A stretch of 64,000 nt of DNA from positions 1-64,000 of the IMG/VR virus record IMGVR_UViG_3300029513_000230. One strand, written 5' to 3'. The notes under the pieces were generated by a model. The model made no database searches. It saw only the letters and a list, made by a program, of their open reading frames with translations, and was not told the origin of the DNA. Shown piece after piece: positions 3,001 through 36,753 of the stretch. This DNA comes from a virus. Numbering within the stretch: position 1 is the stretch's first letter; every line of letters begins with the position of its first letter. The position numbers and the translations under genes are program-made.

Positions 3001-4275
3001 CACCTTGCATCCTATGACTTTGGTCTGTTTCTTTCCATCCTTTTCTACTACAATCTCCAACCTTTCAAACTCACAGAAACTAATCAAGCCTTTCTGACTT
3101 TTCAGACGTCGTTGGTAAAAGATGATCATATCGCGAATCTCTTTTTTCAATTCAGCTGTCAATTCCTTATGAAATTCTGCCTGCTTTTCCCAAATTCTAT
3201 CAAATTCATCCAAATAATCCTGCCGATAGAATACCATATTGCGCAAACTTGCATGGGGATTCTTGTCTAACTCAGCCATCTGATACTGTCCGACCGTTTG
3301 ATGATTAAAGTATAACACTTTGCTCCTATCACTAATGGCTCCCAAATAACCACTAGACGCATTTATCTGACCATTGATCTCTTGCAAGACTACGGCTATC
3401 TCTTCCAAACCTAATTGTTCAGTAAGAGCTTGCGCACGCCAACGATAATTTTCCTTTTTCAGTTCATACCCCTTAGTCGTCCGTTTAAGACCGACAAGTT
3501 TACATTCTTTTTCTATCGTTTCATTCTTTGCTTCTCTGTCATTCCAGCCAACCACTTCTTCTTTCCAAACAAAATAGTTAGCCAAGATAGCCCATGTCTG
3601 GCTTCTGTTTTTTCCTTTGATTTCTTCTTTGGCGGCATCACAGAAAACATCAGGATGAAATTGCTTTTGAACACTCCATATTCTATCCAACTCTTCTTGC
3701 AAATCAGAACGGTAAAAGTCTGGCAAAACTTTCTTGCCCGATTCAAGTAACTGCGAACAAAGTTGCCCCGGAGTCAAATCCTCCTCATACAGCTTTTTAG
3801 CAATCTCCATTCCATCAATCAAAACTCCATCTTCTTCCTTTTTTACCTTTCGACTACTTTTATATCCACGTTTTTTATTAATCATCAATAAGACACGGGA
3901 TAGTTCCTCTAAAGAAATCTCTTCTTCAGCAGCTTTAGCCCGTAAACGACAGGTTTCAAACGTAGTTCTGTTTCCTTGTTCCGAAAGGATAGTTTCGTCG
4001 GTAATAAAACCCAGCTCTTTCAAAAATTCAACCAACGCATCACGACGTAATTTATATCGCTGCAAATTACGGCGCATACTTCTTTTAAGAGTTCTTTCCG
4101 CATTTGTAGTGATACTTTTCCCTTTTTCAAAGTTCTGCGTTTCATCTACTGTCAAAGGATTTACTCTCACACCTAATCGGATGATTGACGAGACTTCCTC
4201 ATCTGTTTCAGCTTCGTTCACCAACGCCCACCCTATACTATTTGTCCCTAAATCCAAGCCTAAAATCCTTTTCAT
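1..4275 (-). CDS. cas9: Cas9 endonuclease, type II-C-like, complete (1424 aa)
   Basis: N-terminal RuvC-I motif ILGLDLGTNSIGWAL; HNH motif EIDIEHIIPQS...N; RuvC-III HHAMDALTVAF; length typical of Bacteroidetes Cas9. Stop codon sits at the window edge (1-3). Confidence 0.9.
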   Translation of the reverse strand: MKRILGLDLGTNSIGWALVNEAETDEEVSSIIRLGVRVNPLTVDETQNFEKGKSITTNAERTLKRSMRRNLQRYKLRRDALVEFLKELGFITDETILSEQGNRTTFETCRLRAKAAEEEISLEELSRVLLMINKKRGYKSSRKVKKEEDGVLIDGMEIAKKLYEEDLTPGQLCSQLLESGKKVLPDFYRSDLQEELDRIWSVQKQFHPDVFCDAAKEEIKGKNRSQTWAILANYFVWKEEVVGWNDREAKNETIEKECKLVGLKRTTKGYELKKENYRWRAQALTEQLGLEEIAVVLQEINGQINASSGYLGAISDRSKVLYFNHQTVGQYQMAELDKNPHASLRNMVFYRQDYLDEFDRIWEKQAEFHKELTAELKKEIRDMIIFYQRRLKSQKGLISFCEFERLEIVVEKDGKKQTKVIGCKVIPRSHPLFQEFKVWQTLNDIKVLGREKKRNALSASESRALYPEEKEILARELAIKENMKKADVLKLLFENPQELDLNFKQIDGNRTGFSLFSAYSKMIEKYGYEPLDFKKPADEIIGQLRTIFTDLGWNTNLFTIDLTKEGKELEMQPYFRLWHLLYSFEGDNTSTGNGKLIEKIMQLCGVEKEYAVELASLSFQDDYGSLSAKAIKRILPYLKEGNLYDVACEYAGYRHSKSSLTKEEIENKVLKGKLEVLPKNSLRNPVVEKILSQMVNVINTIIDTYGKPDEIRVELARELKKSAKEREELTKAIAKSTREHEEIRKLLQDEFGMMNVSRNDIIRYKLYEELKDNGYKTLYSNQYIPKEKIFSKEIDIEHIIPQSRLFDDSLSNKTLEYKAINIEKGNKTAYDFVKEKYGEEGLQQYINRCESLFNDKKAKLRKLKMEQKDIPDGFIDRDLRNTQYIAKKALAMLNEICRRVVATTGSITDQLREDWQLVDVMKELNLPKYEALGFVETYEDKDGRKIKRIKDWTKRNDHRHHAMDALTVAFTKDAFIQYFNNKNAAQDSGNRNHTNIIGIKTRYFDKGRALPPIPLEQFRIEAKQHLEKLLVSIKAKNKVVTVNVNRTKKRKGENTKIQQTPRGQLHLETVYGSHKQYVTKIEKVNASFDAAKIATVSKRAYRNALLKRLETFGNDPKKAFTGKNALEKNPLYADKYQTIRVPEKVQTVEFETIYTIRKPVDPALNVDKVVDVKVRAILERRLKEYGGDPKKAFVNFWENPIWLNKEKGISIKRVSIRGINNAQSIHVKKDKNGNPIWDENGKQIPVDFVNTGNNHHVAIYRKPVLDKKGQVTFDEDGNLMYELDEVVVPFFEAVTRANLGLPIIDKDYRKSEGWQFLFSMKQNEYFVFPNEKTGFNPKEVDLLNPDNYAMISPNLFRVQTMSKVMYGNNVVRDYKFRHHLETTVKDMKELKDIAYKQYKTLSFGNSVVKIRINHIGQIVSVGEY

Positions 4276-4777: not shown

Positions 4778-5626
4778 TCAGGGTCTTTTTCGCCAAAGAT
4801 TTTTCCCCGGCAGTTTGCCTTTATACACCTCCATCGGGCACTCCATTCCGATGCTCATATGAGGTCTTCGGTTGTTATAAAAGTCAATCATACGATTGAT
4901 CTCATTGATCGCCTGTTCTTTATCCCTGTACATTTCCTGCTCGTATATCCATTCGACCTTGAAGATCCCGTTCTGTCTTTCCGCCATGGCGTTGTCTGTC
5001 GGCTCATATCCTTCTGTCATGCTTATCCGTATGTGATGCTCCATGAGGCAGCTGACGTAAGCCTCGCTGGCGTATTGTGACCCCCTGTCCGAGTGGTGTA
5101 TGGTACCGCAAAGGTTGCCGCCTCCGGCGATCCGGATCGCCATGCGCAAGGCCTCTGTCGTATGCGAGGCGCTGAGACTGTCGGATAGGCACCAGCCCAA
5201 TACGGCGTGCGAATAGGCGTCGGTGACAAGATGCAAGTACAACACGTCCCCCAATATCCACACGTACGTGATGTCCGACACCCATATATGGTTGGAATAC
5301 CGCGCGTCTTTTCCCTTGATAAGATTGGGGTACCTTTTATAGACATGATTGGAGTCTGTCGTACGCCTACGTTTGTTGGGATTGAGCTTAAAGCCTTTTG
5401 ATTCATAAACCTTTAAGAACGAGTCTCGCCCGAGGGTCACAGCATGTCCCAAATCCTTTTCCAGTAAATGGAACAGCTTGAAACCTCCGATACGGGGACA
5501 ACAAAGACGATAATAGCCTATCATGTCAGCAAGAAGCTTGACGCGTTGTCTCTCCGATACATCCGCCTTCATGTTCGCGTAATACCATTGGCGTTTCTTT
5601 CCAAACAGCCCGCAAAGGGTAGCCAC
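4778..5626 (-). CDS. IS3-family transposase OrfB (DDE integrase core)
   Basis: Integrase-core motifs WVSDITYV ... HSDRGSQYAS ... E typical of rve/DDE transposases. GTG start, presumably expressed as an OrfAB fusion. Confidence 0.85.
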   Translation of the reverse strand: MATLCGLFGKKRQWYYANMKADVSERQRVKLLADMIGYYRLCCPRIGGFKLFHLLEKDLGHAVTLGRDSFLKVYESKGFKLNPNKRRRTTDSNHVYKRYPNLIKGKDARYSNHIWVSDITYVWILGDVLYLHLVTDAYSHAVLGWCLSDSLSASHTTEALRMAIRIAGGGNLCGTIHHSDRGSQYASEAYVSCLMEHHIRISMTEGYEPTDNAMAERQNGIFKVEWIYEQEMYRDKEQAINEINRMIDFYNNRRPHMSIGMECPMEVYKGKLPGKNLWRKRP

Positions 5627-5658
5627 ACTCTCATGGGGATACTCCTCACGTAACGCCG

Positions 5659-6039
5659 TTACTGTTTGGCACCATCTTTTCTGAATATACTGATGCCTTC
5701 TTCCTCTTCCGCTATCTCTATCATCTTCTCGAAGGCACGGCTACGCATCTTCTCCAGCTCCAAAGAACGACGCAATTCCTCTATGCGCTTTTGAAGGGAC
5801 TCCATATCTGTCAAATCCGATTGCTTGGGAACCATCTGTAACCTCTCTTTTGTTTCTGATGGCAAAGGTAACTGGTCCGATCCCACTGGGTATTCTTTTA
5901 GCCATCTATATATGCAAGGAGGGCTCAAAGAATATTTCTTCGTTATCGCATACTTGCTCATTCCGCTACTGTAATACTCGCGTAACACGGATAATTTAAA
6001 GGGTTCCGTGAACACTCTTTTGGGCTTTCTTTTGATCAT
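5659..6039 (-). CDS. IS3-family transposase OrfA (HTH)
   Basis: 126 aa, HTH-like N-terminus and leucine-zipper-like C-terminus typical of IS3 OrfA; immediately upstream of orfB in the -1 frame. Confidence 0.8.
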   Translation of the reverse strand: MIKRKPKRVFTEPFKLSVLREYYSSGMSKYAITKKYSLSPPCIYRWLKEYPVGSDQLPLPSETKERLQMVPKQSDLTDMESLQKRIEELRRSLELEKMRSRAFEKMIEIAEEEEGISIFRKDGAKQ

Positions 6040-6382: not shown

Positions 6383-7180
6383 TTAAAATCTCACGACTTT
6401 AGGCTTTTTCTGTAATACATAATATAAAGCCCTCACGCTATCTAGCGGTAAAGAGAAATCGGAAAACTCTGGAGATGGGTTTAGTGAGTGCAACGTTATC
6501 TTACCCTCGTCCATATCGCAGCCTGTCATCTGCTTTATGAGGACGGATGTCCCAAACACGACAACCCAATAAGGATGATCCTTATATCGCAGCCCATCTC
6601 TCCAATGCGATCTATCCAGCTCCCTAACAAGGACGACATCGCCTTCCTCAAAACTCTCTCTCGTCCCGTTGTCCATGCTGTCCCCTTTAACCTCAAAAGC
6701 TAAATATCTCCCATGGACAATCCGATCCCATTCGAAAGACTCGGTCTCCCAATCCTCCTTATCCGGATCAAGACGATCGCTTTCGTTAGCAAACCTGCCA
6801 TAAGCGCAAAACGGCACCTTGCTGACAGTCATACGATATCGACCATTTCCTAAGTCATAGAATTTAACGCCATTATTATTCTCAATTAAGAAATCTCCTT
6901 TTTTATCAGCAGACGCAGACACAGCTTCGACAACCACAGGAGAAGATTTTAGCATATCACCCTCTCCCGTAAAAAGCCATCCAGGGTTAACCGAGGGAAA
7001 GGTTGTCAGTATTTTATCCAATACCTTTTTACCATTATCCCTATTTATCCAATTTCCAACGACCTGCCTACTTACTCCTACCTTATCGGCAAAATCCGAA
7101 TTTGACTCACAAAAATGTGTGATAACTTTTAAAATCCTATCTCCGTTAGCTTCCATATTCATATATTTGTTTACACACAT
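6383..7180 (-). CDS. CI/LexA-like phage repressor (HTH_XRE + S24 peptidase)
   Basis: N-terminal HTH (ADKVGVSRQVVGNWIN); C-terminal S24 signature GDSM ... K (EVKGDSMDNG ... LIKQ). Confidence 0.8.
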   Translation of the reverse strand: MCVNKYMNMEANGDRILKVITHFCESNSDFADKVGVSRQVVGNWINRDNGKKVLDKILTTFPSVNPGWLFTGEGDMLKSSPVVVEAVSASADKKGDFLIENNNGVKFYDLGNGRYRMTVSKVPFCAYGRFANESDRLDPDKEDWETESFEWDRIVHGRYLAFEVKGDSMDNGTRESFEEGDVVLVRELDRSHWRDGLRYKDHPYWVVVFGTSVLIKQMTGCDMDEGKITLHSLNPSPEFSDFSLPLDSVRALYYVLQKKPKVVRF

Positions 7181-7924: not shown

Positions 7925-8010
7925 CGCCGGGTAGCACGTAGCAGGAAGCGTCCCTCTCTCCTAAAGAGGAGTAGAAATACCCCGTGGGTTCGAATCCCAC
8001 CCCGGTGACC
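7925..8010 (+). tRNA. tRNA-like element (T-arm GTGGG-TTCGAAT-CCCAC, 3' CCA; possible anticodon loop CUCCUAA, i.e. CCT) with non-canonical D region
   Basis: Acceptor pairing CGCCGGG/CCCGGTG; canonical T-loop; encoded CCA. The D-arm and variable region do not fold canonically by hand. Confidence 0.4.
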
Positions 8011-8311
8011 AAAAAAGAGTTCTTTGACTTATTGAGAAAAATCCTTATGGCTATCAAAAGGTATACGAGATATAAACGGGATAAGCGTAAGGTGAAAATA
8101 CAGGAATGGACGATAGTCCTTGCTCCCGATGTAGTTTAATCGGTTCCGGTATTGGATTTATACATATAATTAATAATGTATATATAATAAGTACGATCCC
8201 ATTCGGGTATCCTTGCGGTGGTTGGTAAAGAAGACCGTATCGTACTAAATAATACGACTTTTCCTACGAGTCGTATCTAAGATATAGCAGGAGGTTAATA
8301 CGCCCAAAAGT

Positions 8312-8485
8312 ATGACAGATTGGACAGACAATCATAAGATGACGACAGATCGGAAAGACGGTCAATCCGAGAACTACGGATTTACATTAGTGATTAATAC
8401 TCCCCCACCCGTCTATGATTCGAGTTCGAAACCGTTGGAGGTTGTGGGGGAGCGAACATTAAAATATAAAGAATATGGAAAATGA
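8312..8485 (+). CDS. small hypothetical protein (57 aa)
   Basis: ATG preceded by AGGAGG; below the ORF-track size cutoff. Confidence 0.3.
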   Translation: MTDWTDNHKMTTDRKDGQSENYGFTLVINTPPPVYDSSSKPLEVVGERTLKYKEYGK

Positions 8486-8684
8486 ATTACAAGGAAATAT
8501 CCTTGGCACAGGATTTACCGGCAATGGATTCGAGATCTCTCGAAATCCCAATGTAAGCAGCTTAGACGGTTTTTTCGTTAAAGAAAGATGCGATAGATTT
8601 TCAATGGCCTTTGCCTCATTATGTACAACGATCACTAGCGATAAAATCCATTTAATAAAAACGACAAAATTATTGAGAGTATGA
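8475..8684 (+). CDS. hypothetical protein
   Basis: ORF only. Confidence 0.3.
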   Translation: MENELQGNILGTGFTGNGFEISRNPNVSSLDGFFVKERCDRFSMAFASLCTTITSDKIHLIKTTKLLRV

Positions 8685-8986
8685 AAAAGATCCTTTCTAT
8701 CCTTAGGGGTAAAAAACAGACAGATCGACTGTCAGAGTTAAGGAGTCAAGAGATCATGAGAGCGCTTGACTCGGCGTTAAACAACGTAGAGGAGCAAAAG
8801 GTATTAGCCGACATCCGGTATCACGAGGAGATAAACAACCTAGGTGACGACGGGGTAGATTACAAGAGCAAGATCAATCAATTGATCGAGTATAAGGAGA
8901 CGATTATCAACGCGGAAAACACCATCCAAGCTATCAATGAGATCAAGAACGATCTCGAGAGCGAGGTTGAAGACATCAATCCATGA
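8681..8986 (+). CDS. hypothetical protein
   Basis: ORF with coiled-coil-like composition. Confidence 0.4.
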   Translation: MKKILSILRGKKQTDRLSELRSQEIMRALDSALNNVEEQKVLADIRYHEEINNLGDDGVDYKSKINQLIEYKETIINAENTIQAINEIKNDLESEVEDINP

Positions 8987-9341
8987 TACCATGAATGAGA
9001 TTTATTGGATCACAAGGTTAGATGCCATACAAACGTTGGCGATAATCGCAGTATTTATCTTGGGGATATTTACATTCTTGTATATTCTCTTCTGGATTAT
9101 GGAAGATGATGAAAAAGACAAGTCTAAGTTAAAAAAAATCATCTTAAAATTCGCAGCCTATATATCAATACCTGTTTTTTTACTAGTATTCATTCCGTCT
9201 AAAAGGGACATGTTGATGATTATCGGAATAGGCGGGACTATAGAATATCTCAAGTCTAATGATACCGCCAAGGAGTTGCCGGATAAGGTCATCATGGCTA
9301 TCGATAAGTTATTAGATGATACAATAGAGGAAGAAAAATGA
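8937..9341 (+). CDS. hypothetical membrane protein
   Basis: Two predicted TM helices (ILGIFTFLYILFWI, ISIPVFLLVFI). Confidence 0.4.
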   Translation: MRSRTISRARLKTSIHDTMNEIYWITRLDAIQTLAIIAVFILGIFTFLYILFWIMEDDEKDKSKLKKIILKFAAYISIPVFLLVFIPSKRDMLMIIGIGGTIEYLKSNDTAKELPDKVIMAIDKLLDDTIEEEK

Positions 9342-9610
9342 ATAAGACCGATTAACCAAGTTTTATAACAATGAAAGAAAGAAGAATCCCACCCTAGGAA
9401 ATGGCTAGGGCAGGTAGCTAACCATAATAAATTCATATTATTATTCAGGGTTACAGGGGGGTCGAGTTCCCCCCGGCTACCACATTAGCACTGTTTGAAA
9501 TGTTTATGTGTAATAAAGCTACCAAGACCTTACAATACCGCCGTGAGGCAGGCAATTAGGGAATATTAGTTTTTACTTAAACTGTGCCGGGGTGGGATTC
9601 CCCGGCAAAC

Positions 9611-9671
9611 GCTCCCTTAGCTCAGTTGGTCAGAGCCTTTGGGGTCGCCGGTTCAAGCCCGGCAGGGAGCA
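9611..9671 (+). tRNA. truncated tRNA-like element lacking an anticodon arm
   Basis: Perfect acceptor GCTCCCT/AGGGAGC, canonical D-arm GCTCAGTTGGTCAGAGC and T-arm GCCGG-TTCAAGC-CCGGC, but only 10 nt (CTTTGGGGTC) between D and T arms. 61 nt in total. Confidence 0.4.
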
Positions 9672-9787
9672 CGTTTCACCCTAACGGGTGCTTATTCAAT
9701 CAGAAAATCAGTCACAATTTACAAAGCAGGTCTCCGTCCGTGAGGATATGAGACCTTTTCACATCAAGAAATTTAAATCAACAACAT

Positions 9788-10018
9788 ATGATAAAGAGAA
9801 ACCAAGCATGGTTCTGGAAGATATTCCGGGCCATAAAGAGCATTACCATCTTTACTTTTAGGATGGTCTTAGCTACCGTACTAGGGCTAATGTCAATAGT
9901 GTCAATATTTGAGTGGTACGATAAGCCATTCAATATCCACCTCTTGATCCTAGGGATTATATCAGTTTTTATTGTGGTACATCAAATCGTGATCATGACC
10001 TATGAATCAGAAAAATGA
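9788..10018 (+). CDS. small membrane protein
   Basis: 76 aa, two TM segments. Confidence 0.4.
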   Translation: MIKRNQAWFWKIFRAIKSITIFTFRMVLATVLGLMSIVSIFEWYDKPFNIHLLILGIISVFIVVHQIVIMTYESEK

Positions 10019-10164
10019 TTCCGGGGTATTATACGTGGTACAAGCCCCTTCAAGACTTAACCGCTCAAGGAAAGACTATATACTAGACGAGTTAAAAGAG
10101 CTTAGTAAAGAGGAGCTTATAAAAATAAGAAAAGACATTGTAGAACTAATAAACGATAAATAAA

Positions 10165-11274
10165 ATGGCTGCTATAAAATCTTACAAGGGATTTGACAAA
10201 AATTTAAAATGCCGGGATTTTCAATATGAAATAGGCAAGGAATATGAGATGGATGGAGAGATCAAGGTGTGTAACAGAGGGTTTCACGCTTGCGAAAGCC
10301 CATTTGATGTTTTTGATCACTATACTATGATAGACTCTAGGTTTTGCGAAGTAGAGCAAGACGGGAATATATCCAAGGAGGATAGAGGGACAAAGATTTG
10401 CTCCTCGAAAATAAAAATAAAAGCAGAGTTAAAATTGGCTGACATGATCTATCTTGGAGTCGAATGGCTAAAAGAGATCACATCACCTGAAAAAATAAAA
10501 ACGAGCATAAAGGATAATTCATCCGGCTACGGTGCCAAGATAGGATCATCCGGCTACGGTGCCAAGATAGGATCATCCGGCAACGATGCCAAGATAGGAT
10601 CATCCGGCAACGATGCCAAGATAGGATCATCCGGCAACTATGCCCAGATAGGATCATCCGGCAACGATGCCCAGATAGGATCATCCGGCAACGATGCCCA
10701 GATAGGATCATCCGGCAACTATGCCCAGATAGGATCATCCGGCTACGGTGCCAAGATAGGATCATCCGGCTACGGTGCCAAGATAGGATCATCCGGCTAC
10801 GGTGCCAAGATAGGATCATCCGGCTACGATGCCCAGATAGGATCATCCGGCAACTATGCCCAGATAGGATCATCCGGCGACGGTGCCCAGATAGGATCAT
10901 CCGGCGACGATGCCCAGATAGGATCATCCGGCAACGATGCCCAGATAGGATCATCCGGCAACGATGCCAAGATAGGATCATCCGGCAACTATGCCCAGAT
11001 AGGATCATCCGGCAACTATGCCAAGATAGGATCATCCGGCGACGGTGCCCAGATAGACAGCACAGGCGAAGGCTGTGTCATCATGTGCGCAGGTATTAAC
11101 TCTGTAGCAAAAGCCTCAAAAGGATCATGGATAACATTATCCGAATGGTCTTATTCTGATAAAAAGCAAAGATATATCCCCGTTTGCGTAAAAACGGAAT
11201 TTGTTGATGGGGAGAAGATAAAGGCGGATACATATTACAAATTAGCTGGAGGGGTATTTAAAGAAATACAATAG
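10165..11274 (+). CDS. repeat-containing protein (N-terminal Cys/His-containing domain + 20 x 9-aa IGSSG-x-x-A-x repeats)
   Basis: 369-aa ORF. The central 540 nt consist of a near-perfect 27-bp tandem array. Confidence 0.7.
   Translation: MAAIKSYKGFDKNLKCRDFQYEIGKEYEMDGEIKVCNRGFHACESPFDVFDHYTMIDSRFCEVEQDGNISKEDRGTKICSSKIKIKAELKLADMIYLGVEWLKEITSPEKIKTSIKDNSSGYGAKIGSSGYGAKIGSSGNDAKIGSSGNDAKIGSSGNYAQIGSSGNDAQIGSSGNDAQIGSSGNYAQIGSSGYGAKIGSSGYGAKIGSSGYGAKIGSSGYDAQIGSSGNYAQIGSSGDGAQIGSSGDDAQIGSSGNDAQIGSSGNDAKIGSSGNYAQIGSSGNYAKIGSSGDGAQIDSTGEGCVIMCAGINSVAKASKGSWITLSEWSYSDKKQRYIPVCVKTEFVDGEKIKADTYYKLAGGVFKEIQ
10519..11058 (+). repeat. 27-bp tandem repeat array (~20 copies) inside CDS 10165-11274
   Basis: Unit ggatcatccggc-NAC-GNT-gcc-MAG-ata. 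Variation is confined to three codons (N/Y/D; D/G/Y; K/Q). Confidence 0.85.
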
Positions 11275-11427
11275 TCCCAAGGCATTGCTTATCGGAGGAT
11301 CGCATGAGAGACATCTACATCAAAGACCCCGACGGCGAACCGGAGTACGACGGGGAGGAGGACAACGAGGAATATGAGGAGAGCATGGAAGAGCTTAGGT
11401 TCCTGTTTGATTCTTATAATTGGTAAA

Positions 11428-11584
11428 CCTGCCCTTACGAGGTGCAACCCCGCCCCAGACCGGCAACCGATATCCTAGACAAGTGGTAGGCCATGACGAT
11501 ATCATTGGCCCGGTGGAAAGGGACACGGTAATAAGGGCAGGGCGGCCGATGGTCTTAGTCCGGGTTCGACTCCCGGAGGCTGAC
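11428..11584 (+). ncRNA. structured RNA/tRNA-like element (long-range stem CCTGCCCTTA...TAAGGGCAGG; T-arm CCGGG-TTCGACT-CCCGG)
   Basis: Canonical T-loop GGTTCGACTCC followed by 7 nt + C. No matching 5' acceptor strand found by hand. The overlapping ORFs (11395-11598 -, 11420-11635 +) look spurious. Confidence 0.3.
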
Positions 11585-11604
11585 GAATTTAAATACACGA
11601 TAAC

Positions 11605-12279
11605 ATGGACAAATCAGAAGAGATTGACAAATTAGCGATAGCGTTGGCCAAGTTCCAAGGATCGCTAGAGCAACCAAGCCTCAATTCCGAGGTTGAGGTA
11701 GAAACTAAAATGGGAGGAAAGTACAAGTTTAAATACGCAGACCTATCCGAATGCAAAAGGGCGGCGAAACAACCATTAGCTGAAAACGAACTTGCTGTAT
11801 GTCAGCTAATAGAGGATGATTACTCTATCCGTACCATACTGCTTCATTCCTCCGGTCAATGGATATCGTCCAAGGTAAGGATGCCATCTAATACGGCGAA
11901 CGCTCAATCCATCGGATCGGCCATCACGTACGCCAAGAGATACGCCTTTTGCGCCATCCTAGGCATCGTGGCTGACGATGACGAGGACGCTAACATAGCG
12001 AGCGGTAATTCCGCCCAAAAGGAGCAGCCTAAGGAGCAGCCTAAAAAAACGGCAAACTCCAGAGTAAAGAAAGAGCTTACGAGAGATCATCTAAACAATG
12101 AGAGCGCAATGAAATCCATATCGGAGTGGCTATACAATAAAGAGAAGATAGCCAAGGAGGCCAACCAGCCATTCTCCGTAGAAAGCGTTATCAGCAATGC
12201 TTACATTATAGGAAAGGTAGAGATGGATTCTTTCGTAGAGATATATAACAACTATAAAATAAACAATAACCTGTCATGA
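11605..12279 (+). CDS. erf: ERF-family single-strand annealing recombinase
   Basis: Conserved ERF core ...SAITYAKRYAFCAILGI...; acidic and Gln-rich C-terminal tail. Confidence 0.75.
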   Translation: MDKSEEIDKLAIALAKFQGSLEQPSLNSEVEVETKMGGKYKFKYADLSECKRAAKQPLAENELAVCQLIEDDYSIRTILLHSSGQWISSKVRMPSNTANAQSIGSAITYAKRYAFCAILGIVADDDEDANIASGNSAQKEQPKEQPKKTANSRVKKELTRDHLNNESAMKSISEWLYNKEKIAKEANQPFSVESVISNAYIIGKVEMDSFVEIYNNYKINNNLS

Positions 12280-12755
12280 GCAAAGAACTAGAGCTAAGCG
12301 GCAAGACCCCGCTAACGAAAAGCGATATCGAGGCTTTATCAGTAGACCTTTTGAACCCGGTACTAGAAGGAGAGGTAGATCCCGTATCACACGTCGTCAA
12401 GTTAAAGGCGATGCAAGAGACCATCAAGAGGACGCTGGACGATGACCGGATGAAGGACGCCGTCCTTTCCGAGATCGAGAAATACGGGAAGGAGCGCTCT
12501 TGGAACGGGGCCACGGTCAAGATAAAGGAGACAGGCGTATCCTACGACCACTCCAATTGCAATGATCCGGTCTACGCTAGGCTGATCGAGGAAAGGATGC
12601 TTCTCGATGCCAAGATAAAAGAACGGGAGGCGTTCCTGAAGACGGTGCCGGATAATACCACGGTCGTTGATGACGAGACCGGGGAGATATACACGATCCA
12701 TCCGGCGATAAGGATGGCTAAGATGTCATACTCTATAACATTCAACAAAAAATAA
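12276..12755 (+). CDS. hypothetical phage protein
   Basis: ORF overlapping the erf stop (ATGA). Confidence 0.5.
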   Translation: MSKELELSGKTPLTKSDIEALSVDLLNPVLEGEVDPVSHVVKLKAMQETIKRTLDDDRMKDAVLSEIEKYGKERSWNGATVKIKETGVSYDHSNCNDPVYARLIEERMLLDAKIKEREAFLKTVPDNTTVVDDETGEIYTIHPAIRMAKMSYSITFNKK

Positions 12756-12852
12756 TCCACGCATGCCGTGGCTACGGGACGGTGGTTATCCCCGCCGTAG
12801 CGAATAACCGACCGCCCCGCTTATAAATCTAAAATTTAAAATCATAAACATT

Positions 12853-13158
12853 ATGGCGAATTTATACGGCTCAATCTGCTTGAGCGACATACCGAAGGAG
12901 TTGATGAAAAAAGTAATGACGGCCAAGGGAGAGAAGATCTTCCTCAATATCTCGATCGGGGAGAAAAAAGAGCCTGTCACGTTCGACAACCGCACCTATA
13001 CGCATTATGTGTCTTGCGCCCCAAGGAAAGAGGAGCGAAAGGAAGGTGTTTATTACGGCATAGGTGACTTGATGGAATCCACGTTCAAGAACAACATCCC
13101 CTCACCGGAGGATATCAACAACGCCCCATCGGTCGATGATTCGGATCTCCCCTTTTAA
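12853..13158 (+). CDS. hypothetical protein
   Basis: ORF only. Confidence 0.45.
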   Translation: MANLYGSICLSDIPKELMKKVMTAKGEKIFLNISIGEKKEPVTFDNRTYTHYVSCAPRKEERKEGVYYGIGDLMESTFKNNIPSPEDINNAPSVDDSDLPF

Positions 13159-13160
13159 TC

Positions 13161-13595
13161 ATGGAACTATACTTGCTCAACACCGCCAGCGGATTGAGGC
13201 CATGCTATGATTCCGACTATGACGAGAAGAAAAAGCTCAAGCTAGGCAAGATCTACAAGGCCAAGATAACGCTGGCACGGAACATAGATTTCCATAGGAA
13301 GTATTTCGCCTTGATAAATTGCGCATGGTCTTACCAGAACGAGAAGACCACGGCGCATTTCAAGGAGAGCGTGGAGTGCTTCCGGAAGACTGTAGAGATC
13401 GCCGCCGGGCATTGCGATACGGCCTATAGTATATCACGTAAGGAATGGATAGAGATCCCGAAGTCGATAGCCTTCGACAAGATGGACGAGGCCGAGTTCA
13501 TGGATCTCTACGAGCGTGTGAAGGACGTGCTTTTCTCGGTATTCCTTCGGGGGATATCAGAATACGATTTCATGAGAAACCTATCTAATTTTTAG
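13161..13595 (+). CDS. hypothetical protein
   Basis: ORF only. Confidence 0.45.
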   Translation: MELYLLNTASGLRPCYDSDYDEKKKLKLGKIYKAKITLARNIDFHRKYFALINCAWSYQNEKTTAHFKESVECFRKTVEIAAGHCDTAYSISRKEWIEIPKSIAFDKMDEAEFMDLYERVKDVLFSVFLRGISEYDFMRNLSNF

Positions 13596-13881
13596 TCATG
13601 AGAAAAAGCGACAGGCCTCCAAATTACCTTATCAATAAGATCGTGAGGCATGCAAACATTATTATCACAGCCCCTTATGGCAGCGTCAGATACATGGATG
13701 CGGCCAGACTCCTTAAAAAGGAGGTCAAGAAGCTAGAAACCTATAAGAAAAATGAGAGATCTTAAATACTGCCTCAATGAGGATTGCTGTAAAAGACATT
13801 GCCTCTGCCATCAACGGCAAAAACATTGGAAAGACCCGTCTAAAAAAGATGGGGAAACTGTAAGGCCGGAATCGGCCTTAC

Positions 13882-14535
13882 TTGACGGGAATACTCCTTG
13901 CAAAGGGTATGTCCCACAATACGAAAGAAGAAAATATAATATTAAATATTAATGATATGGGAAAGAGAAAAGAAGGTTCTTACAACTTTGACAAGAACGT
14001 ACAAATGTTTTTGGCTTGCGCAAAGGACGATTACCGTCCCGCTATGGAATGCGTATATTTCAAGGGAGATTGGGCCTACGCCAGTGACGGACATATTATC
14101 GTTAAAAACAGGATATCCGAATGCTCAAACCTTGACGAAGCCATGATACAGGCGTTAGACGGCAAATTACTGCATAGTCTATTTTTTAAGGACATGTTGA
14201 AATATGATGACATCCTTATCTCTGATGACGGAATAGAGTGCCATAAGAAGAATGACAAGGCGTTCTTCTATTTCGCGGATGAGAACTTAAAATATCCAGA
14301 CGCAGAGAAAGTGATACAAAATTATCAGGCAAAACCCAGCGTTCCGCTTCCTCAAATATCCTTTAACATGGGCTTATTCGACATAATGAGGAAAGCTTTA
14401 TATGAATGCGAACGATGCACGGCTACTTTCAAGGGCGTTAACGATGCCATCATTTTTGACAGCATGGTAGAAGACGTAAGCAGTATCGGATTAATCATGC
14501 CTTTATACAATGAGGCACTAAACCAACAAATATGA
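13882..14535 (+). CDS. hypothetical protein
   Basis: ORF only. Confidence 0.45.
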   Translation: MTGILLAKGMSHNTKEENIILNINDMGKRKEGSYNFDKNVQMFLACAKDDYRPAMECVYFKGDWAYASDGHIIVKNRISECSNLDEAMIQALDGKLLHSLFFKDMLKYDDILISDDGIECHKKNDKAFFYFADENLKYPDAEKVIQNYQAKPSVPLPQISFNMGLFDIMRKALYECERCTATFKGVNDAIIFDSMVEDVSSIGLIMPLYNEALNQQI

Positions 14536-32547: not shown

Positions 32548-32940
32548 TTATAAAACCACTATGCTCTCCTCCTCTCTCGCCGCCTCCCACTCGGCGAAAT
32601 CGCTATCCACACGGTCTTTCAACGCCTTCCTCTCGTTAAGGAACGTCTTATAAGACTCCACGTATGACAAGTCCAGTATGCCTAGCTGGGCGGCGTTGTA
32701 GTCGTTCAGCTTCTTTTGCTCCACGTCCTTGTCCCATAGGGCGTTGATACAGGCCTCCAATATCTTGTTGGCCGTCAACGTGGGCCATACCCTGACCTCG
32801 TTGTAACTATAGGAGATCACGGGGGCCATATCGTCACCCATCTCCCTTGTCTCCTCTCTAACGTCCCACCGGTACAGGTAGGAACCGTCACCGTCCCGCT
32901 CTATTCTAGGCGGCATTGTGTCGCTCCATGATCGCTTCAT
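32548..32940 (-). CDS. hypothetical acidic protein
   Basis: ORF; start overlaps the RT stop. Confidence 0.4.
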   Translation of the reverse strand: MKRSWSDTMPPRIERDGDGSYLYRWDVREETREMGDDMAPVISYSYNEVRVWPTLTANKILEACINALWDKDVEQKKLNDYNAAQLGILDLSYVESYKTFLNERKALKDRVDSDFAEWEAAREEESIVVL

Positions 32941-34000
32941 AAAACTCTGGTTTTAAAATTTTCTTAGCTAAATGCTTGCTATCGCTATCATATATCCAGC
33001 CCAGCCAACCGGCTAGACCTGCCTTGTATTCCGTTAAGGATATATTCGGGACTTTATTCAATCTAGCCGCCGCACGACATAGATTTTGCTTAGTCCTCTT
33101 CCTTATCCGTATATGCTCCTTGTAAAATACGAAACCCACGAAATCTACACCACGGCCGCTTTTATCCGATCTTCTCTCAGCGATCTTAAATATCTGGTAA
33201 TTCCCTTTCAGCTCCAACTTCAACACGGCCAATCTATCGATAAGCCACGGAAGTAATACGTTTCTCAAGAAACACTTATCATGATGGAAAAAAGTCATGT
33301 CATCCGCGTATCTGATATAATGCCTTATATCTATAATCTCCTTTATCTCGTGATCCAGATAGGCGAGATAAAGATTCGCAAGATATTGGCTAAGATAGTT
33401 CCCGATCGGAACGCCGGGAGCGGAATCGATGATCTCATCCAACAACATAAGCAAGCGATCGTCCTTGATCTTCTTCCGAGCGATGCCTTTTAACACCTCA
33501 TGGTCTATTGACGGATAGAATTTGCGGATATCAACCTTGAGGCAATAGACGGATTCACGATCGGACAAAGCCCGTCTTGTCCTCTTATACGCCTCCGTTA
33601 TTCCTCTTCCCTTGATACATGATGTCGTATCAGCCGTGAACACGGAAACCCATATAGGTTCCATGACGTTCATTATGGCATGATGCAATATCCTGTCCGG
33701 ATAATAAGGGAGCTTGAAGATGATCCTTTCTTTTGGCTCATAGATGGTATCAGTCCGGTACTTGGAAGTCTTGAACGTGCCATCCAGCAGAGACTTTAGC
33801 AAACGGCTTAGATTACCTTCTTTGTCCTTGTCAAACAACCTTATGCCGTATGAATCCTTCTTTCCCCTTCGGGCTTTCATGTCCGCAAGTATCAAGTTGT
33901 CCATATTCGCTATCTTATCAAATAAATTCCCTGTTCTCTTCATTTTATTGTCATTAATTTGCTTTTTATCATAGGGAGTCTTCGGTTTCCCTACCAACAC
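32906..34000 (-). CDS. DGR reverse transcriptase
   Basis: RT motifs: N-terminal RTGNLFDKIANMDNLILADMKARRGKK; motif 4 IGNYLSQYLANLYL (DGR-specific SQ); catalytic YIRYADDMTFF; thumb DFVGFVF. Confidence 0.85.
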   Translation of the reverse strand: MLVGKPKTPYDKKQINDNKMKRTGNLFDKIANMDNLILADMKARRGKKDSYGIRLFDKDKEGNLSRLLKSLLDGTFKTSKYRTDTIYEPKERIIFKLPYYPDRILHHAIMNVMEPIWVSVFTADTTSCIKGRGITEAYKRTRRALSDRESVYCLKVDIRKFYPSIDHEVLKGIARKKIKDDRLLMLLDEIIDSAPGVPIGNYLSQYLANLYLAYLDHEIKEIIDIRHYIRYADDMTFFHHDKCFLRNVLLPWLIDRLAVLKLELKGNYQIFKIAERRSDKSGRGVDFVGFVFYKEHIRIRKRTKQNLCRAAARLNKVPNISLTEYKAGLAGWLGWIYDSDSKHLAKKILKPEFYEAIMERHNAA

Positions 34001-34080
34001 CCTTTATATGGGGAGACTTTTTTCGCCAAGAGGCGAGGCCACCATCCCTGTTTGTTATCTAAATATCTTTTCCCCCTCTC

Positions 34081-34198
34081 TAAAAGTATAGGCGTGAACC
34101 GATGTTACGATTCGCATCGGAAGGCGCATTATTCGTATTCACGTTAGCGAGGCCTGCATTCGACCTGTTGTCCGCGTTACCGCCAACCAGCACCACCT
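34081..34198 (-). repeat. DGR template repeat (TR)
   Basis: 118-bp noncoding copy of 34643-34760. 19 mismatches, all at + strand T (= A on the transcribed strand). Confidence 0.8.
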
Positions 34199-34221
34199 AG
34201 GGATGATCGACCCTCATTCCG

Positions 34222-34575
34222 TCATTCGAGATAATACCTGTTCCCGGAGGCTCGCATCGTCACTTTCCTAGGGAACTTGTCCATCTCCTTTATCTTACCA
34301 AGAACGTACTTGATCTCTTGGGAGTTCGTAAAGAATTTCTTGGCATCACTATCCTTATCCTCTAGATTCTCCTTGATCATGACAAGCGCCCTGTCTTTCC
34401 CGAACTTGGTGGACACGCCATCCATGTAATCAATTACCCAGAACGTGAGATTCGTCAACTTCTGTTGGGTGATCTCCGGACAATTAAAATGCCTTGAGTT
34501 CTTATCCCTTGGGATATTCAAGAACGACAAGCTGCCGTCATCTTTATTCTTTTCTTCTTCCATTTTTATCCTCAT
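34222..34575 (-). CDS. candidate DGR accessory variability determinant (Avd) by position
   Basis: 117-aa Lys-rich ORF located between target gene and TR, as in the BPP-1 mtd-avd-TR-brt layout. No sequence similarity to Avd is claimed. Confidence 0.35.
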   Translation of the reverse strand: MRIKMEEEKNKDDGSLSFLNIPRDKNSRHFNCPEITQQKLTNLTFWVIDYMDGVSTKFGKDRALVMIKENLEDKDSDAKKFFTNSQEIKYVLGKIKEMDKFPRKVTMRASGNRYYLE

Positions 34576-34614
34576 TAAACGTTATACAAAAAATTCCCGA
34601 CGTGATACGTGCGG

Positions 34615-36753
34615 CTACGCCGACGTTTTACGATATTCGGGGAAAAAGCAAAGGCGTGAACCGACGTCACGATCCGCAGCGGAAGGCGCAGAACCCGTAT
34701 ACACGTCAGCGAGGCCCGCATACGACCCGGTGTCCGCGCGACCGCCAACCAGCACCACCTGCATGCGGTTAGCCGATGTGTAGGTGTAGTAGTAGTCGCA
34801 CCAGTAGGTAGAACTACTACCGCCGATCTCCGTAGCTACGATATCACCATCCTCACCTAGGAGCATCTTCTTGGCATAACCATTGGTACGGCAGATGTTG
34901 CCTTTCTTGTTATAGCCTGTGTAAGATGTATCGCTGAAGTTTGACGGGTCATCGGTAGTCCATAATATGGATAATCCCGCATCGCCCGTGGTGACCTGTA
35001 TATTGGCCCCGTCGGTGTATTTCCAGATATGGCCGAACGGATTCTCTATGCCACGATACCTGTTAGCCATCAACGTGGCGTGAGTACCGCCGGAAGCGTT
35101 CTTCACGACATATGCCTTCTCTCCCGAGCCGTTCCCGAACTCGTTGGTATAGCCGCATGGGATAAGTGGATTGATCTTGTTGAAGTTAGTCCAATCCGTC
35201 ATTTGCGTTGGTCCCGGACCTAGGCCACCTTGGGCGAAACCGTTTGCGTCCTTCTGGGCGTTGAAAGGCTTCTGGCTGTCCAGCGTGGCGTACTCGACGG
35301 CGAATAGCCAGAACAGGGTCTTGTGGGCGTTGTAGGTGTACATCTCCCAACCGCTGCCACGTTTCCTTGCGGCTTGCCGGAATTGGTCTCGGGTGAGGTT
35401 GGTGACGGGACGGCCTAGCAAGGAACGGTAGGTTCCGTCCCATTCGGCGGTGTTGTCGCCGCCTCTTGTATCAGTAGAGTTTGTTTTATCCGACATCAAT
35501 AACCCTAAAGATCTAAGCATTTGCGCCTCACTTGAGCCTATATAGAATTTGCTTATATGCTTGTATCCGGGCAATGGAATCGAAGATAACATCATTTTAA
35601 ATTTAGTCCCAGTTATGTATATTCTATACCAATGATCGGGAATCTCTACCATTGACGCATAATCTTTAGACGCAAATGTCATCTTCCATGCCGTTGGTTC
35701 ATGATAATAATATACTCCTCCATTATTATCTAACACGACTCCTCTCATCCCGCTCTGCACCGGCAACTCCCTATGCAGTTGCATATTTCCAACACGCTTC
35801 CCGTCCGGGCTTGACGATGCCATGTCCCACTCTACACCATAGGCGTACCGCTCCTCGATGTCGGGGATGTCCTCCCAAGCGGGGGTCCACTCGGTGGAGA
35901 TGTCGCCGTACTCGAGCTTGATCTTGTGGATGGTGGAAGTTGATGTGCCAGTTTTAGGAGAACTAAATACAACCATATGTGTATTATCAGCTACTGCATC
36001 TCCGATATTAGTAATCCATTTAAAAGCCTTACTGGCCTTCCCATTCACAAAGTCAGTCTTACTGAACTGAACCATAGAACCTACTGCACCAGTAGAGTTA
36101 TATATAGTGAACATTTCCTTATCATCACCCAATTCTCCAAAAATAGTCAATGTTACTTGTGTTCCTTTAGATATCGGTTCAGTTAGCCAATAATCAGCGA
36201 TATTGTAATTCGAATTACTCACCTCCTTCCCTGATCCCAGCAACAGGTTCCTGCCGTACACGGGCAGCTTGCGGTACTTGCCATCAGCCATCAGAGACTT
36301 ATCCTTGTCCCCCTTGGTCTCCAGCGTTATCGACACGTCCGGATCGTCATTTTTTGCCTTGTCCGGCGTTATGGTTATCTGACCGTTAGACGGGGTGGAT
36401 GTGACAACGGGCTTTAACTTATCAACGTCCGTCCTTAGACCGGTGACCAGATTCCGGATATCCGTATCGTCGTAATGGTCACGCAAGTTAGGCGTGGTTA
36501 TGGTTCCCTCAGCGGAGGTTATCTCCAAGACGTATTCCGTATCCGTGTTAGTCTTTATCCTCACCTTGATGTCTTGCATCACCAATGGAAGCTCGGCGTA
36601 CGTATGGATACCGTCCGAGAACTTCATGTTTAAATTGCCGTTCGCCAACCGCTCGAAAAGCCATAGCGACGGCGGGTATATGGTGCTGTCAGCCGTCCAC
36701 TCGGCGGTGGACTGCTCTATCTGTTGGTATACGTAAGCTCCTCTCTTGCTCAT
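34615..36753 (-). CDS. DGR target protein, tail-fibre-like with C-terminal CLec-type variable region
   Basis: 712 aa; C-terminus ...RMQVVLVGGRADTGSYAGLADVYTGSAPSAADRDVGSRLCF carries the VR; lies in the tail-fibre module. Confidence 0.7.
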   Translation of the reverse strand: MSKRGAYVYQQIEQSTAEWTADSTIYPPSLWLFERLANGNLNMKFSDGIHTYAELPLVMQDIKVRIKTNTDTEYVLEITSAEGTITTPNLRDHYDDTDIRNLVTGLRTDVDKLKPVVTSTPSNGQITITPDKAKNDDPDVSITLETKGDKDKSLMADGKYRKLPVYGRNLLLGSGKEVSNSNYNIADYWLTEPISKGTQVTLTIFGELGDDKEMFTIYNSTGAVGSMVQFSKTDFVNGKASKAFKWITNIGDAVADNTHMVVFSSPKTGTSTSTIHKIKLEYGDISTEWTPAWEDIPDIEERYAYGVEWDMASSSPDGKRVGNMQLHRELPVQSGMRGVVLDNNGGVYYYHEPTAWKMTFASKDYASMVEIPDHWYRIYITGTKFKMMLSSIPLPGYKHISKFYIGSSEAQMLRSLGLLMSDKTNSTDTRGGDNTAEWDGTYRSLLGRPVTNLTRDQFRQAARKRGSGWEMYTYNAHKTLFWLFAVEYATLDSQKPFNAQKDANGFAQGGLGPGPTQMTDWTNFNKINPLIPCGYTNEFGNGSGEKAYVVKNASGGTHATLMANRYRGIENPFGHIWKYTDGANIQVTTGDAGLSILWTTDDPSNFSDTSYTGYNKKGNICRTNGYAKKMLLGEDGDIVATEIGGSSSTYWCDYYYTYTSANRMQVVLVGGRADTGSYAGLADVYTGSAPSAADRDVGSRLCFFPEYRKTSA
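34643..34760 (-). repeat. DGR variable repeat (VR) at 3' end of target gene
   Basis: Matches TR apart from 19 A-position substitutions; ends 26 nt before the stop codon. Confidence 0.8.

Follow-up and report, generated by a model that had tools for sequence, protein, structure and literature searches.

Here, we describe a phage gene whose centre is a tandem array of nearly identical 27-bp coding units that differ from one another at three codons. The gene, part of a gut Bacteroides prophage, lies at 10165..11274 on the plus strand of a 64,000-nucleotide stretch of viral DNA (positions 1 to 64,000 of the IMG/VR record IMGVR_UViG_3300029513_000230; hereafter, the window), and encodes 369 amino acids (aa), a cytoplasmic protein that belongs to the early region of a temperate phage akin to Bacteroides phage BF1-TP2. 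We are highly confident of the descriptive part of what follows, namely that the protein belongs to the family with a DUF7666 head, that the array is predicted to form a solenoid, and that its units evolve in concert with three variable sites being retained. Taken as a whole, the reading toward which we lean is that this DUF7666-solenoid protein acts as a cytoplasmic early effector with a surface diversified by selection; its functional part, an effector engaged in an arms race, is by itself a tentative and rather doubtful proposal.

The repeat array and its concerted evolution

The gene is a complete coding sequence (369 codons plus a stop in the list of open reading frames, ORFs) that joins a DUF7666 head, a solenoid of nonapeptides and a tail like that of the Escherichia coli protein YdhT, as indicated by the ORF list and the profile phrog_4433. 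Tandem Repeats Finder placed an array at 10519-11056, with a period of 27, 19.9 copies, 94% matches, no indels and a score of 866, which is the sole strong tandem repeat detected by this program in the window. In codon register, it corresponds to 20 units at 10519..11058 (plus strand), each of the form S-S-G-x-x-A-x-I-G (x marks a variable residue) or, more exactly, SSG-[N/Y/D]-[G/D/Y]-A-[K/Q]-I-G. The near-perfect 20-copy coding repeat of 27 bp that had been described in an initial annotation, made from the sequence alone, is borne out by both this program and the table of units. Apart from the last unit, which also differs at positions 26-27 and ends in ID in place of IG, the units vary at four nucleotides only, i.e., position 10 (A in 11 units, T in 6 and G in 3), position 13 (G in 15 and T in 5), position 14 (A in 13 and G in 7) and position 19 (C in 11 and A in 9), and these fall in three codons. 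The initial annotation had correctly restricted the variation to three codons, except that the second of them, given there as GNT, is in fact GAT, GGT or TAT (KRT). All differences between the units of this array are nonsynonymous, and the number of synonymous differences is zero.

The structure of the full-length protein was predicted with AlphaFold2 (AF2) using 23 close homologues, a shallow alignment in which the head was poorly modelled (predicted local distance difference test, pLDDT, of ~30). In the repeat region, the mean pLDDT of blocks of 10 residues was mostly 70-91, with 60 in the first block. For each unit, the model predicts a strand of four residues, [K/Q]-I-G-S, and then a turn of five, S-G-x-x-A, in a strictly periodic manner, and this periodicity runs through the degenerate capping units that follow the array into a small beta domain. 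The beta-helix or solenoid raised as a question in the initial annotation is thus answered, at the level of a model, by a strand-turn beta-solenoid; a Foldseek search of the full-length model against PDB returned only non-significant beta-helix matches, which we attribute to the poor modelling of the head. Because of the AF2 pattern and the hydrophobic periodicity, in which the A and I residues point inward, the three variable residues of each unit would face outward, one of them opening the strand and the other two belonging to the turn.

The evolution of the array was examined at the DNA level in 81 arrays comprising 1186 units, of which 20 arrays with 270 units represent the lineage of the window. 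The synonymous codons used for the constant residues vary by lineage (TCA, TCG or AGC for Ser, ATA, ATT or ATC for Ile, and GGA, GGT or GGC for Gly), and within most arrays every unit shares one synonymous-codon choice. At the silent positions 3, 6, 9, 12, 18, 24 and 27, diversity was 0.007-0.12 within arrays versus 0.20-0.66 between arrays (Fst-like values of 0.82-0.99), whereas nucleotides 10, 14 and 19 had diversities of 0.58, 0.42 and 0.47 within arrays versus 0.67, 0.57 and 0.50 between them (Fst-like values of 0.05-0.27). In the window lineage, within-array diversity was 0.00-0.04 at silent sites versus 0.43-0.63 at variable sites. Nonsynonymous departures from the consensus of the respective array numbered 518, 565 and 456 at codons 4, 5 and 7, and at most 36 at any other codon (all 81 arrays). 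Since silent sites are uniform within arrays and different between arrays, these comparisons demonstrate a concerted mode of evolution, in which units are frequently converted into one another and exchanged unequally and diversity is kept at exactly three codons. The gene conversion proposed in the initial annotation therefore stands, in that the units are kept identical by recombination; the very recent expansion proposed with it does not suffice as the whole story, considering that the same pattern is found across phyla.

Every array is mixed at these three positions. Homologues from Bacteroidota, Firmicutes, Proteobacteria, Terriglobia and Saccharibacteria vary there as well, which argues that the pattern is an old, selected property of the family. 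Across phyla, codon 4 draws on N, D and Y and rarely H (NAY codons); codon 5 on a small lineage-specific set (G, D, Y and N here, and S/Y, G/D/L or A/D elsewhere); and codon 7 on K or Q in about equal shares, or on R or Q in GC-rich hosts. The divergent arrays L058, L060 and L067 show this protein pattern despite numerous silent differences, suggesting that this is a property of the protein and not only an accident at the DNA level. Given that silent differences have been erased and the three sites remain near full population diversity, we infer that the heterogeneity is maintained by diversifying or balancing selection on the exposed surface of the solenoid. Intragenic recombination (unequal exchange, slippage and conversion) thus homogenises the units and adds or removes single units and blocks of units, and against this homogenisation selection would keep three positions mixed, two that lie in the turn and a third with which the strand begins.

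The strongest competing explanation, which we still consider improbable, is that the array is a neutral spacer of variable length, its variable residues being unconstrained surface and its nucleotide identity the result of recent slippage. Consistent with such a spacer, the order of units is nearly random, the three variable sites are near linkage equilibrium, the arrays of close relatives share no conserved sequence, and copy number ranges widely across relatives, from 7 to 28 units. The sole signal found in the order of units is a weak avoidance of basic residues two units apart (z=-3.4), and the idea of stacking rules along the solenoid was dropped for this reason. However, conversion should homogenise neutral sites as well, which is at odds with the difference between silent and variable sites in the window lineage, and the restricted alphabets (D/N/Y/H, and basic residue versus Gln) are preserved across phyla. 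A further argument against neutrality is that the same pattern occurs on a different type of repeat in Barba phages. Protein gp041 of Rheinheimera phage Barba18A (L131, 2986-3963), which is annotated as 'pentapeptide', has the same DUF7666 head (tblastn E=3e-6) followed by 24 units of 15 bp, NTG-[N/D/F/Y]-[R/Q/W/L], that are identical in DNA except at two codons. It differs from the window protein in the length of its units (15 bp or 5 aa, not 27 bp or 9 aa), its C-terminal region and its gammaproteobacterial host. The presence of this head on a different variable repeat implies that a head joined to an array with repeat-variable residues is a recurrent design.

Such arrays resemble the repeats of transcription activator-like (TAL) effectors in that the units are nearly identical in DNA, variable positions are fixed, copy number varies and recombination is intragenic. 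TAL units are helical, comprise 33-35 residues and each read one DNA base, whereas the units of the window protein are nine-residue strand-turn elements with three variable positions, and in its family the order of units is near random and unshared among close relatives. By analogy, the likeness is one of evolutionary mode, not of family membership, and the near-random order of units, together with the absence of shared array sequence among close relatives, makes a strict TAL-like 'code' improbable.

Copy number, alleles and the reliability of assembled arrays

Among the 120 best matches, there were 118 distinct arrays compared with 47 distinct N-domains and 36 distinct C-domains, and the arrays had 7-20 units, mostly 10-16. 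Homologue lengths step by 9 aa. Flanks were compared by all-against-all BLAST, and in one pair of loci (L019 and L033) the flanks are 100% identical over 3000 bp and the arrays comprise 22 and 16 units, respectively, owing to insertions of two and of four units; a similar difference separates L016 from L022, and duplicated blocks, of 5-8 units in several arrays, are visible within L013, L010, L046 and L048. These observations agree with the expectation of the initial annotation that the array changes by slippage and recombination, and its suggestion that repeat number and sequence be compared among relatives has thus yielded variability, not an identical array in all of them.

Changes of this type have also been seen in cultured material. 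In laboratory evolution of Serratia symbiotica CWBI, clone LT-05 acquired an in-frame deletion of 54 bp (2 x 27) in a 1413-nt gene named 'ydhT_1' (PMC12505973). The deletion, at 782,372, lies within a mitomycin-inducible prophage at 772-819 kb and was called by breseq; in the accessible portion of that source, it is not discussed by the authors (PMC12505973). Four Barba genomes that we compared (L131-L134) differ by the loss of one unit, the gain of one unit with a few changed units, and the replacement of NR by DW in one unit, which now matches both of its neighbours and therefore bears the signature of conversion.

Could this variability be mostly an artefact of short-read assembly? Most of the comparative arrays come from short-read assemblies, which are prone to collapse or misorder repeats, and this circumstance counts against our reading. 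Numerous contigs from IMG/VR and from genomes terminate within the array, and two-unit forms are common, including dozens of 207-aa forms in Logan and ENA assemblies whose N and C domains are 100% identical, as repeat collapse would give. The BF1-TP2 record, too, is broken in the array and has poly-C and adapter-like ends. The short two-unit arrays are probably assembler collapses, so that copy numbers taken from short reads are lower bounds. For the variability as a whole, however, an artefact is a poor explanation and we give it little weight. The variable sites barcode the units, and the longest exact internal repeat of the window array is 75 bp, which can be resolved by long k-mers; residue variants, moreover, must exist in the reads. 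An 11-unit allele (P0060, 867 nt) is 100% identical in ten independent ENA metagenome assemblies (L120-L129), the same allele being obtained throughout with k = 109, 119, 127 and 141 and with SPAdes. Furthermore, isolate genomes of Barba phages differ by units, and the 54-bp deletion was called in a cultured strain. As for the window itself, three public contigs encode a protein identical to it over all 369 aa, and L117, the contig shown, was assembled with k=141; since the longest internal repeat is shorter than this k, an artefact is unlikely and we accept the array as assembled.

Other observations speak for stability. The P0060 allele remains the same in assemblies in which its upstream 700 bp are mostly only 93-95% identical and in several of which the downstream module is replaced after ~90-100 bp, this module being either Erf or a 278-aa protein and an FtsK-like protein; the ends of the repeat gene thus look like mosaic recombination junctions. 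Of 115 Barba isolates, 112 share at least 99% identity in the homologous gene region, and most among the 60 records listed match the reference exactly. Units of 27 bp remain in frame, so their gain or loss provides no on/off or reading-frame switch. The 'contingency locus' proposed in the initial annotation is therefore upheld as polymorphism among strains, to which the 118 distinct arrays attest, and has to be given up as an on/off switch, with rapid switching being favoured by the differing arrays between identical flanks and argued against by the P0060 allele and the mostly invariant Barba array. In our reading, the array is best regarded as a coding minisatellite, similar to a variable number of tandem repeats locus, that would occasionally gain, lose or convert units, and not as a rapid contingency switch.

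The head domain, the tail and possible functions

Judged by sequence, the window gene is one member of a very large family that is catalogued but uncharacterised. Its N-terminal region (aa 4-95, 10174..10449 on the plus strand) scores 120.4 bits with Pfam DUF7666 (PF24703), whose cutoff is 27, and aligns to profile positions 1-93 of 95 (E=4.8e-35), so that the separate Cys/His-containing domain noticed in the initial annotation, for which a hidden Markov model (HMM) search had been advised, could be assigned to a family. PHROG 4433, of unknown function, matches over the full length (E=4.7e-50), with aa 3-367 aligned to positions 12-309 of a profile of 312. A word-indexed search found at least 8000 close relatives, and an exhaustive search of cluster representatives found 454, 3140 and 10942 clusters (50% identity) at E<1e-30, 1e-10 and 1e-3, respectively. 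The DUF7666 head is present in 145 of the 150 best representatives, and nearly all representatives end in the family tail ...CVKTEYVDGERIKADTWYKL.NGEFVE. In IMG/VR, 418 stretches encode a relative. Species-representative genomes contain 32 loci in at least five phyla, the best of which is 67% identical, and their hosts are Segatella, Alistipes, Prevotella, Butyricimonas, Lachnospiraceae and Ruminococcus as well as several Alphaproteobacteria, Paraburkholderia, Terriglobia, Saccharibacteria and Trabulsiella. The head domain alone matches 187 GenBank phage records, including Salmonella ES18-like, Pseudomonas, Vibrio, Ralstonia, Blautia and Clostridioides phages.

The head was modelled separately (AF2 on aa 1-118, using a diverse alignment of 20 sequences with 27-54% identity), with a pLDDT of 92.5. 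A helical linker (aa 96-118, 10450..10518 on the plus strand; AF2 helices at aa 91-105 and 108-115) connects it to the array. Across 146 members, conserved residues are K8 (96%), C16 (94%), C36 (85%), G39 (92%), H41 (94%), C43 (89%), P46 (97%), Y53 (90%), V63 (90%), E64 (82%) and K77 (85%). In the model, H41 lies on a strand that is followed by a helix and then by Y53 and E64, which recalls, in a more compact form, the H-Y-E arrangement of ADP-ribosyltransferases (ARTs). On the basis of this model, the fold of the head is, in our estimate, probably ART-like. The ART superfamily (SCOP d.166.1) includes BC2332-like, PARP, Tpt1/KptA, Arr, diphtheria-toxin-like and AcrF11 proteins; BC2332 itself is placed in the ADP-ribosylation superfamily as SCOP d.166.1.6 and has a structure-predicted likeness to diphtheria-toxin-type enzymes (PMC3000352, PMC3024214). 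The DUF7666 head differs from ARTs in that it is smaller than is typical of them, its H-Y-E spacing is only 12 and 11 residues, and its three conserved Cys residues suggest a metal site, which is atypical of ARTs. C16, C36, H41 and C43 may form such a site, possibly stabilising the head, and the H-Y-E-like and metal-site readings are compatible with each other.

A second, independent pointer to ADP-ribose biology, from one cluster, may be provided by the domain content of a relative. P0246 (490 aa, a cluster representative) carries a DarG/SCO6735-type macrodomain at aa ~10-140 (PDB 5e3b, E=2.3e-17; NCBIfam DarG, E=3.3e-15) together with the same YdhT-like solenoid and tail. Its middle region has a 'CGKGLHG' motif reminiscent of 'C..GFHAC' in DUF7666; we do not claim that P0246 carries both a macrodomain and DUF7666, since hhalign of the DUF7666 profile against this region was non-significant. 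Two further relatives have a weak PcfJ-like region.

The C-terminal module (aa 299-369, 11059..11271 on the plus strand; phrog_27197 matches aa 274-368) begins with degenerate capping units (STGEGCVIM CAGINSVAK ...) and continues as a small beta domain ending in ...CVKTEFVDGEKIKADTYYKL, an end motif that is kept in the representatives of many clusters. This module shares homology with the C-terminal end of E. coli YdhT (b1669; NF007410), an uncharacterised protein that has the same nine-residue unit (e.g., GDSSRIANT and GANARIANS) in about 14 repeats and a related C-terminal domain. BLASTP against YdhT gave E=1e-27 with 32% identity over 184 aa, and the HMM match had E=1.9e-30. NCBIfam NF007410 scored 106.4 bits against an equivalog cutoff of 300, with only the repeats and C-terminus aligning, and the window protein is thus related to YdhT by a shared module, as judged from these alignments, and is not an equivalog. 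YdhT differs from it in having a helical N-terminal region without a DUF7666 match, in units that are degenerate at the protein level and not near-identical, and in the location of its gene, which is chromosomal, at the end of the ydhYVWXUT cluster, and not in a phage.

NAD and ADP-ribose biology features in phage-host conflicts, as illustrated by DarTG, CmdTAC, AcrF11 and the T4 proteins Alt and Mod. Under the reading that we lean toward, the early protein would act as a host-directed or anti-defence effector, its head would act on or bind a target related to NAD or ADP-ribose, and its solenoid, variable in both length and surface, would be exposed to an arms race in which it either recognizes a variable host partner or escapes recognition. 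Several points weigh against this reading, in addition to the short-read origin of most arrays. The top Foldseek match of the head was a PARP domain that is non-significant (E=0.41), and profile searches of the head found no ART family or structure by sequence, so the likeness is one of fold only; likewise, no solved structure or Pfam family other than DUF7666 was linked to the head by sequence. H41, Y53 and E64 are at most a putative equivalent of the catalytic triad, and H41 with the three conserved Cys residues could simply constitute a metal site of structural importance. Only one cluster has the macrodomain fusion, and its middle region is not demonstrably DUF7666. The argument for selection is drawn from diversity patterns, for which site-specific hypermutation may be an alternative, and the random unit order and unshared arrays among close relatives argue against a precise 'reading code'. 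Finally, the defence models of PADLOC gave no match to the protein, and no publication on the DUF7666/PF24703 family was found in the literature searched.

Other functions were considered for the protein. One is that of a DNA mimic or a decoy directed at gyrase or restriction enzymes, like Qnr, MfpA or ArdA/Ocr, with a solenoid imitating B-DNA. The beta-solenoid fold class, the early position, where anti-restriction genes often sit, and the pentapeptide-type units of the Barba homologue, whose gene lies in a block of small genes with a canonical pentapeptide-repeat protein encoded two genes downstream, are compatible with this function. We nevertheless regard it as very unlikely, because the charges of the array almost cancel out (12 acidic versus 9 basic residues in 180 aa), half of all units carry Lys, and the conserved head would be left unexplained.

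Still less probable is a calcium-binding beta-roll of the RTX type or a collagen-like or tail-fibre virion protein. RTX nonapeptides share with the window units a period of nine residues, a Gly-rich turn, one short predicted strand per unit and a weak, repeated sequence similarity, which is reflected in matches to hemolysin 9p6c (E=1.2e-4), CyaA 7usl (E=8e-4) and NCBIfam RTX_toxin (E=1.2e-5) and in a score of E=2e-87 for the giant, genuine RTX protein P0131, which results from summed repeats. The RTX unit GGxGxDxUx is not preserved, however: in GSSG-x-x-A-x-I, Ser replaces the second Gly, D, G or Y may occupy the Asp position and the register of hydrophobic residue and strand is shifted by one position, and Pfam HemolysinCabind had no match to the protein at E<=1. 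Pfam Collagen (E=2.8e-5) and weak PHROG tail-fibre matches favour a virion protein, but the former scored 24.2 bits, below its cutoff of 27.2; Gly occurs only at unit positions 3 and 9 and not in every third residue as in the Gly-X-Y triplets of collagen, and AF2 predicts beta strands. RTX proteins are exported by type I secretion, whereas secretion of the window protein is argued against in that its 369 aa contain no signal peptide or hydrophobic stretch and its gene lies in an early operon between repressor and recombination genes, far from the structural genes.

Genomic setting and significance

A CI-like repressor with an S24 peptidase domain is encoded on the minus strand at 6383..7180 (Pfam Peptidase_S24 and Phage_CI_repr; in BF1-TP2, gp78 carries a repressor annotation). 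The lysis-lysogeny switch is marked by this repressor, and the early operon with the repeat gene runs rightward from there. The gene is located between this CI/S24-type repressor and Erf, and its assignment to the early region in the initial annotation was thus correct. An upstream ORF of 53 aa (10002..10163, plus strand) ends a single base ahead of the start codon (ATG) of the repeat gene and therefore belongs to the same operon; genes of 76 and 53 aa also precede the repeat gene in L117 and L120-L127. Downstream lies a very acidic ORF of 40 aa (MRDIYIKDPDGEPEYDGEEDNEEYEE...; 11304..11426, plus strand), which corresponds to BF1-TP2 gp2 and is retained beside the gene in relatives, with ORFs of 39-40 aa called in L123, L124 and L127. 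The next sizeable gene encodes the single-strand annealing recombinase Erf (11605..12279, plus strand; Pfam ERF, E=1e-19) and is followed by a NinB/DUF1367 gene. Erf is a plausible candidate for catalysing the gain, loss and conversion of units, and it may thereby speed up the shuffling. An ERF-like ORF was found downstream in 17 of 115 related loci; constant linkage to Erf was therefore rejected as a rule of the family, the linkage being suggestive for the window phage. On the opposite strand of the array, an ORF of 185 aa (10478..11035, minus strand) is the repeat read in reverse (MILSWHS/RCR...) and hence an artefact, not a gene.

Among cultured phages, the nearest relative is BF1-TP2 (68 kb, from B. 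fragilis), with 94.9% identity over the aligned part (56%) of a query comprising positions 8000-14000. Its record (PQ571263.1, 'complete genome') breaks exactly inside the 27-bp array, starting with ~80 C residues and adapter-like sequence (L001, 1-160) and ending in adapter-like sequence (L002, 4200-4351), and the two halves of the gene are annotated apart as 'c-type lectin precursor' and 'hypothetical protein'. Adjoining the repressor side of the prophage, the window carries a Cas9-like ORF of 1424 aa with HNH_4 and RuvC_III domains (1-4275, minus strand), which runs off the start of the window; BF1-TP2 has a tyrosine integrase there instead, and the tandem-repeat scan of the window yielded no CRISPR array. 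Between the Cas9-like gene and the repressor is an IS3-type transposase pair (HTH_Tnp_1 and rve; 4778-6039, minus strand), and between the repressor and the early operon is a tRNA-Arg (CCT) at 7925-8011 on the plus strand. Elsewhere, two minus-strand ORFs of 1143 and 1140 aa (38701-42132 and 52108-55530) lie about 13 kb apart.

The window also contains a complete diversity-generating retroelement (DGR) at 32906-36753 on the minus strand. It comprises a reverse transcriptase of 364 aa (32906..34000; RVT_1, E=8e-13), a template repeat (TR, 34082-34198), a 117-aa ORF at the position of an accessory, Avd-like gene (34222..34575), and a target ORF of 712 aa among the virion structural genes (34615..36753), whose 3' end carries the variable repeat (VR, 34644-34760), with all 18 TR-VR mismatches located at TR adenines. 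At the position of the reverse transcriptase, BF1-TP2 gp52 is annotated as 'transposase'. That this DGR or a similar targeted mutator writes variation into the three codons of the array, whose variable residues N/D/Y/S/G resemble typical DGR outputs, is the least credible of the explanations considered: no more than 8 consecutive bases are common to the TR and the repeat gene, only two of the four variable nucleotides are consensus adenines (13 and 19 are not), six of the eight consensus adenines are invariant, the three-site pattern occurs in homologues of many phyla, and the observed changes look like unit conversion and indels. The DGR was thus rejected as a source of array variation, in that it targets another gene and the pattern of the array is not adenine-specific.

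The family to which the window gene belongs is very common, with thousands of clusters and with members in phages and prophages of several bacterial phyla; it is found in gut Bacteroides, Segatella and Alistipes, in Firmicutes, in phages of Pseudomonas and of the Salmonella ES18-like type, and in marine phages. Solenoid proteins that consist of tandem repeats and evolve through intragenic recombination are an already known kind, and the family itself is catalogued in databases; what appears to be new, according to the literature searched, is the preservation of three repeat-variable positions against homogenisation across phyla and a predicted ART-like head with a macrodomain relative. For curators of gut virome catalogues, it is relevant that such arrays break or collapse short-read phage assemblies and mislead annotation, as in BF1-TP2. 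Within a single gene, the array may offer a clean natural case of concerted evolution combined with selection for diversity. It is conceivable, as a speculation that goes well beyond the descriptive findings, that DUF7666-solenoid proteins constitute a widespread, undescribed class of early phage effectors in which an ART-like head (or macrodomain) is joined to a solenoid re-dealt by recombination at two or three positions per unit in an intracellular arms race; an analogy of such re-dealing with the shuffling of repeats in TAL effectors or variable lymphocyte receptors is drawn in the same speculative spirit. The predicted ART-like head and the macrodomain relative would tie the family to NAD and ADP-ribose biology, and thereby provide a testable hypothesis for a 'dark' family of phage genes.

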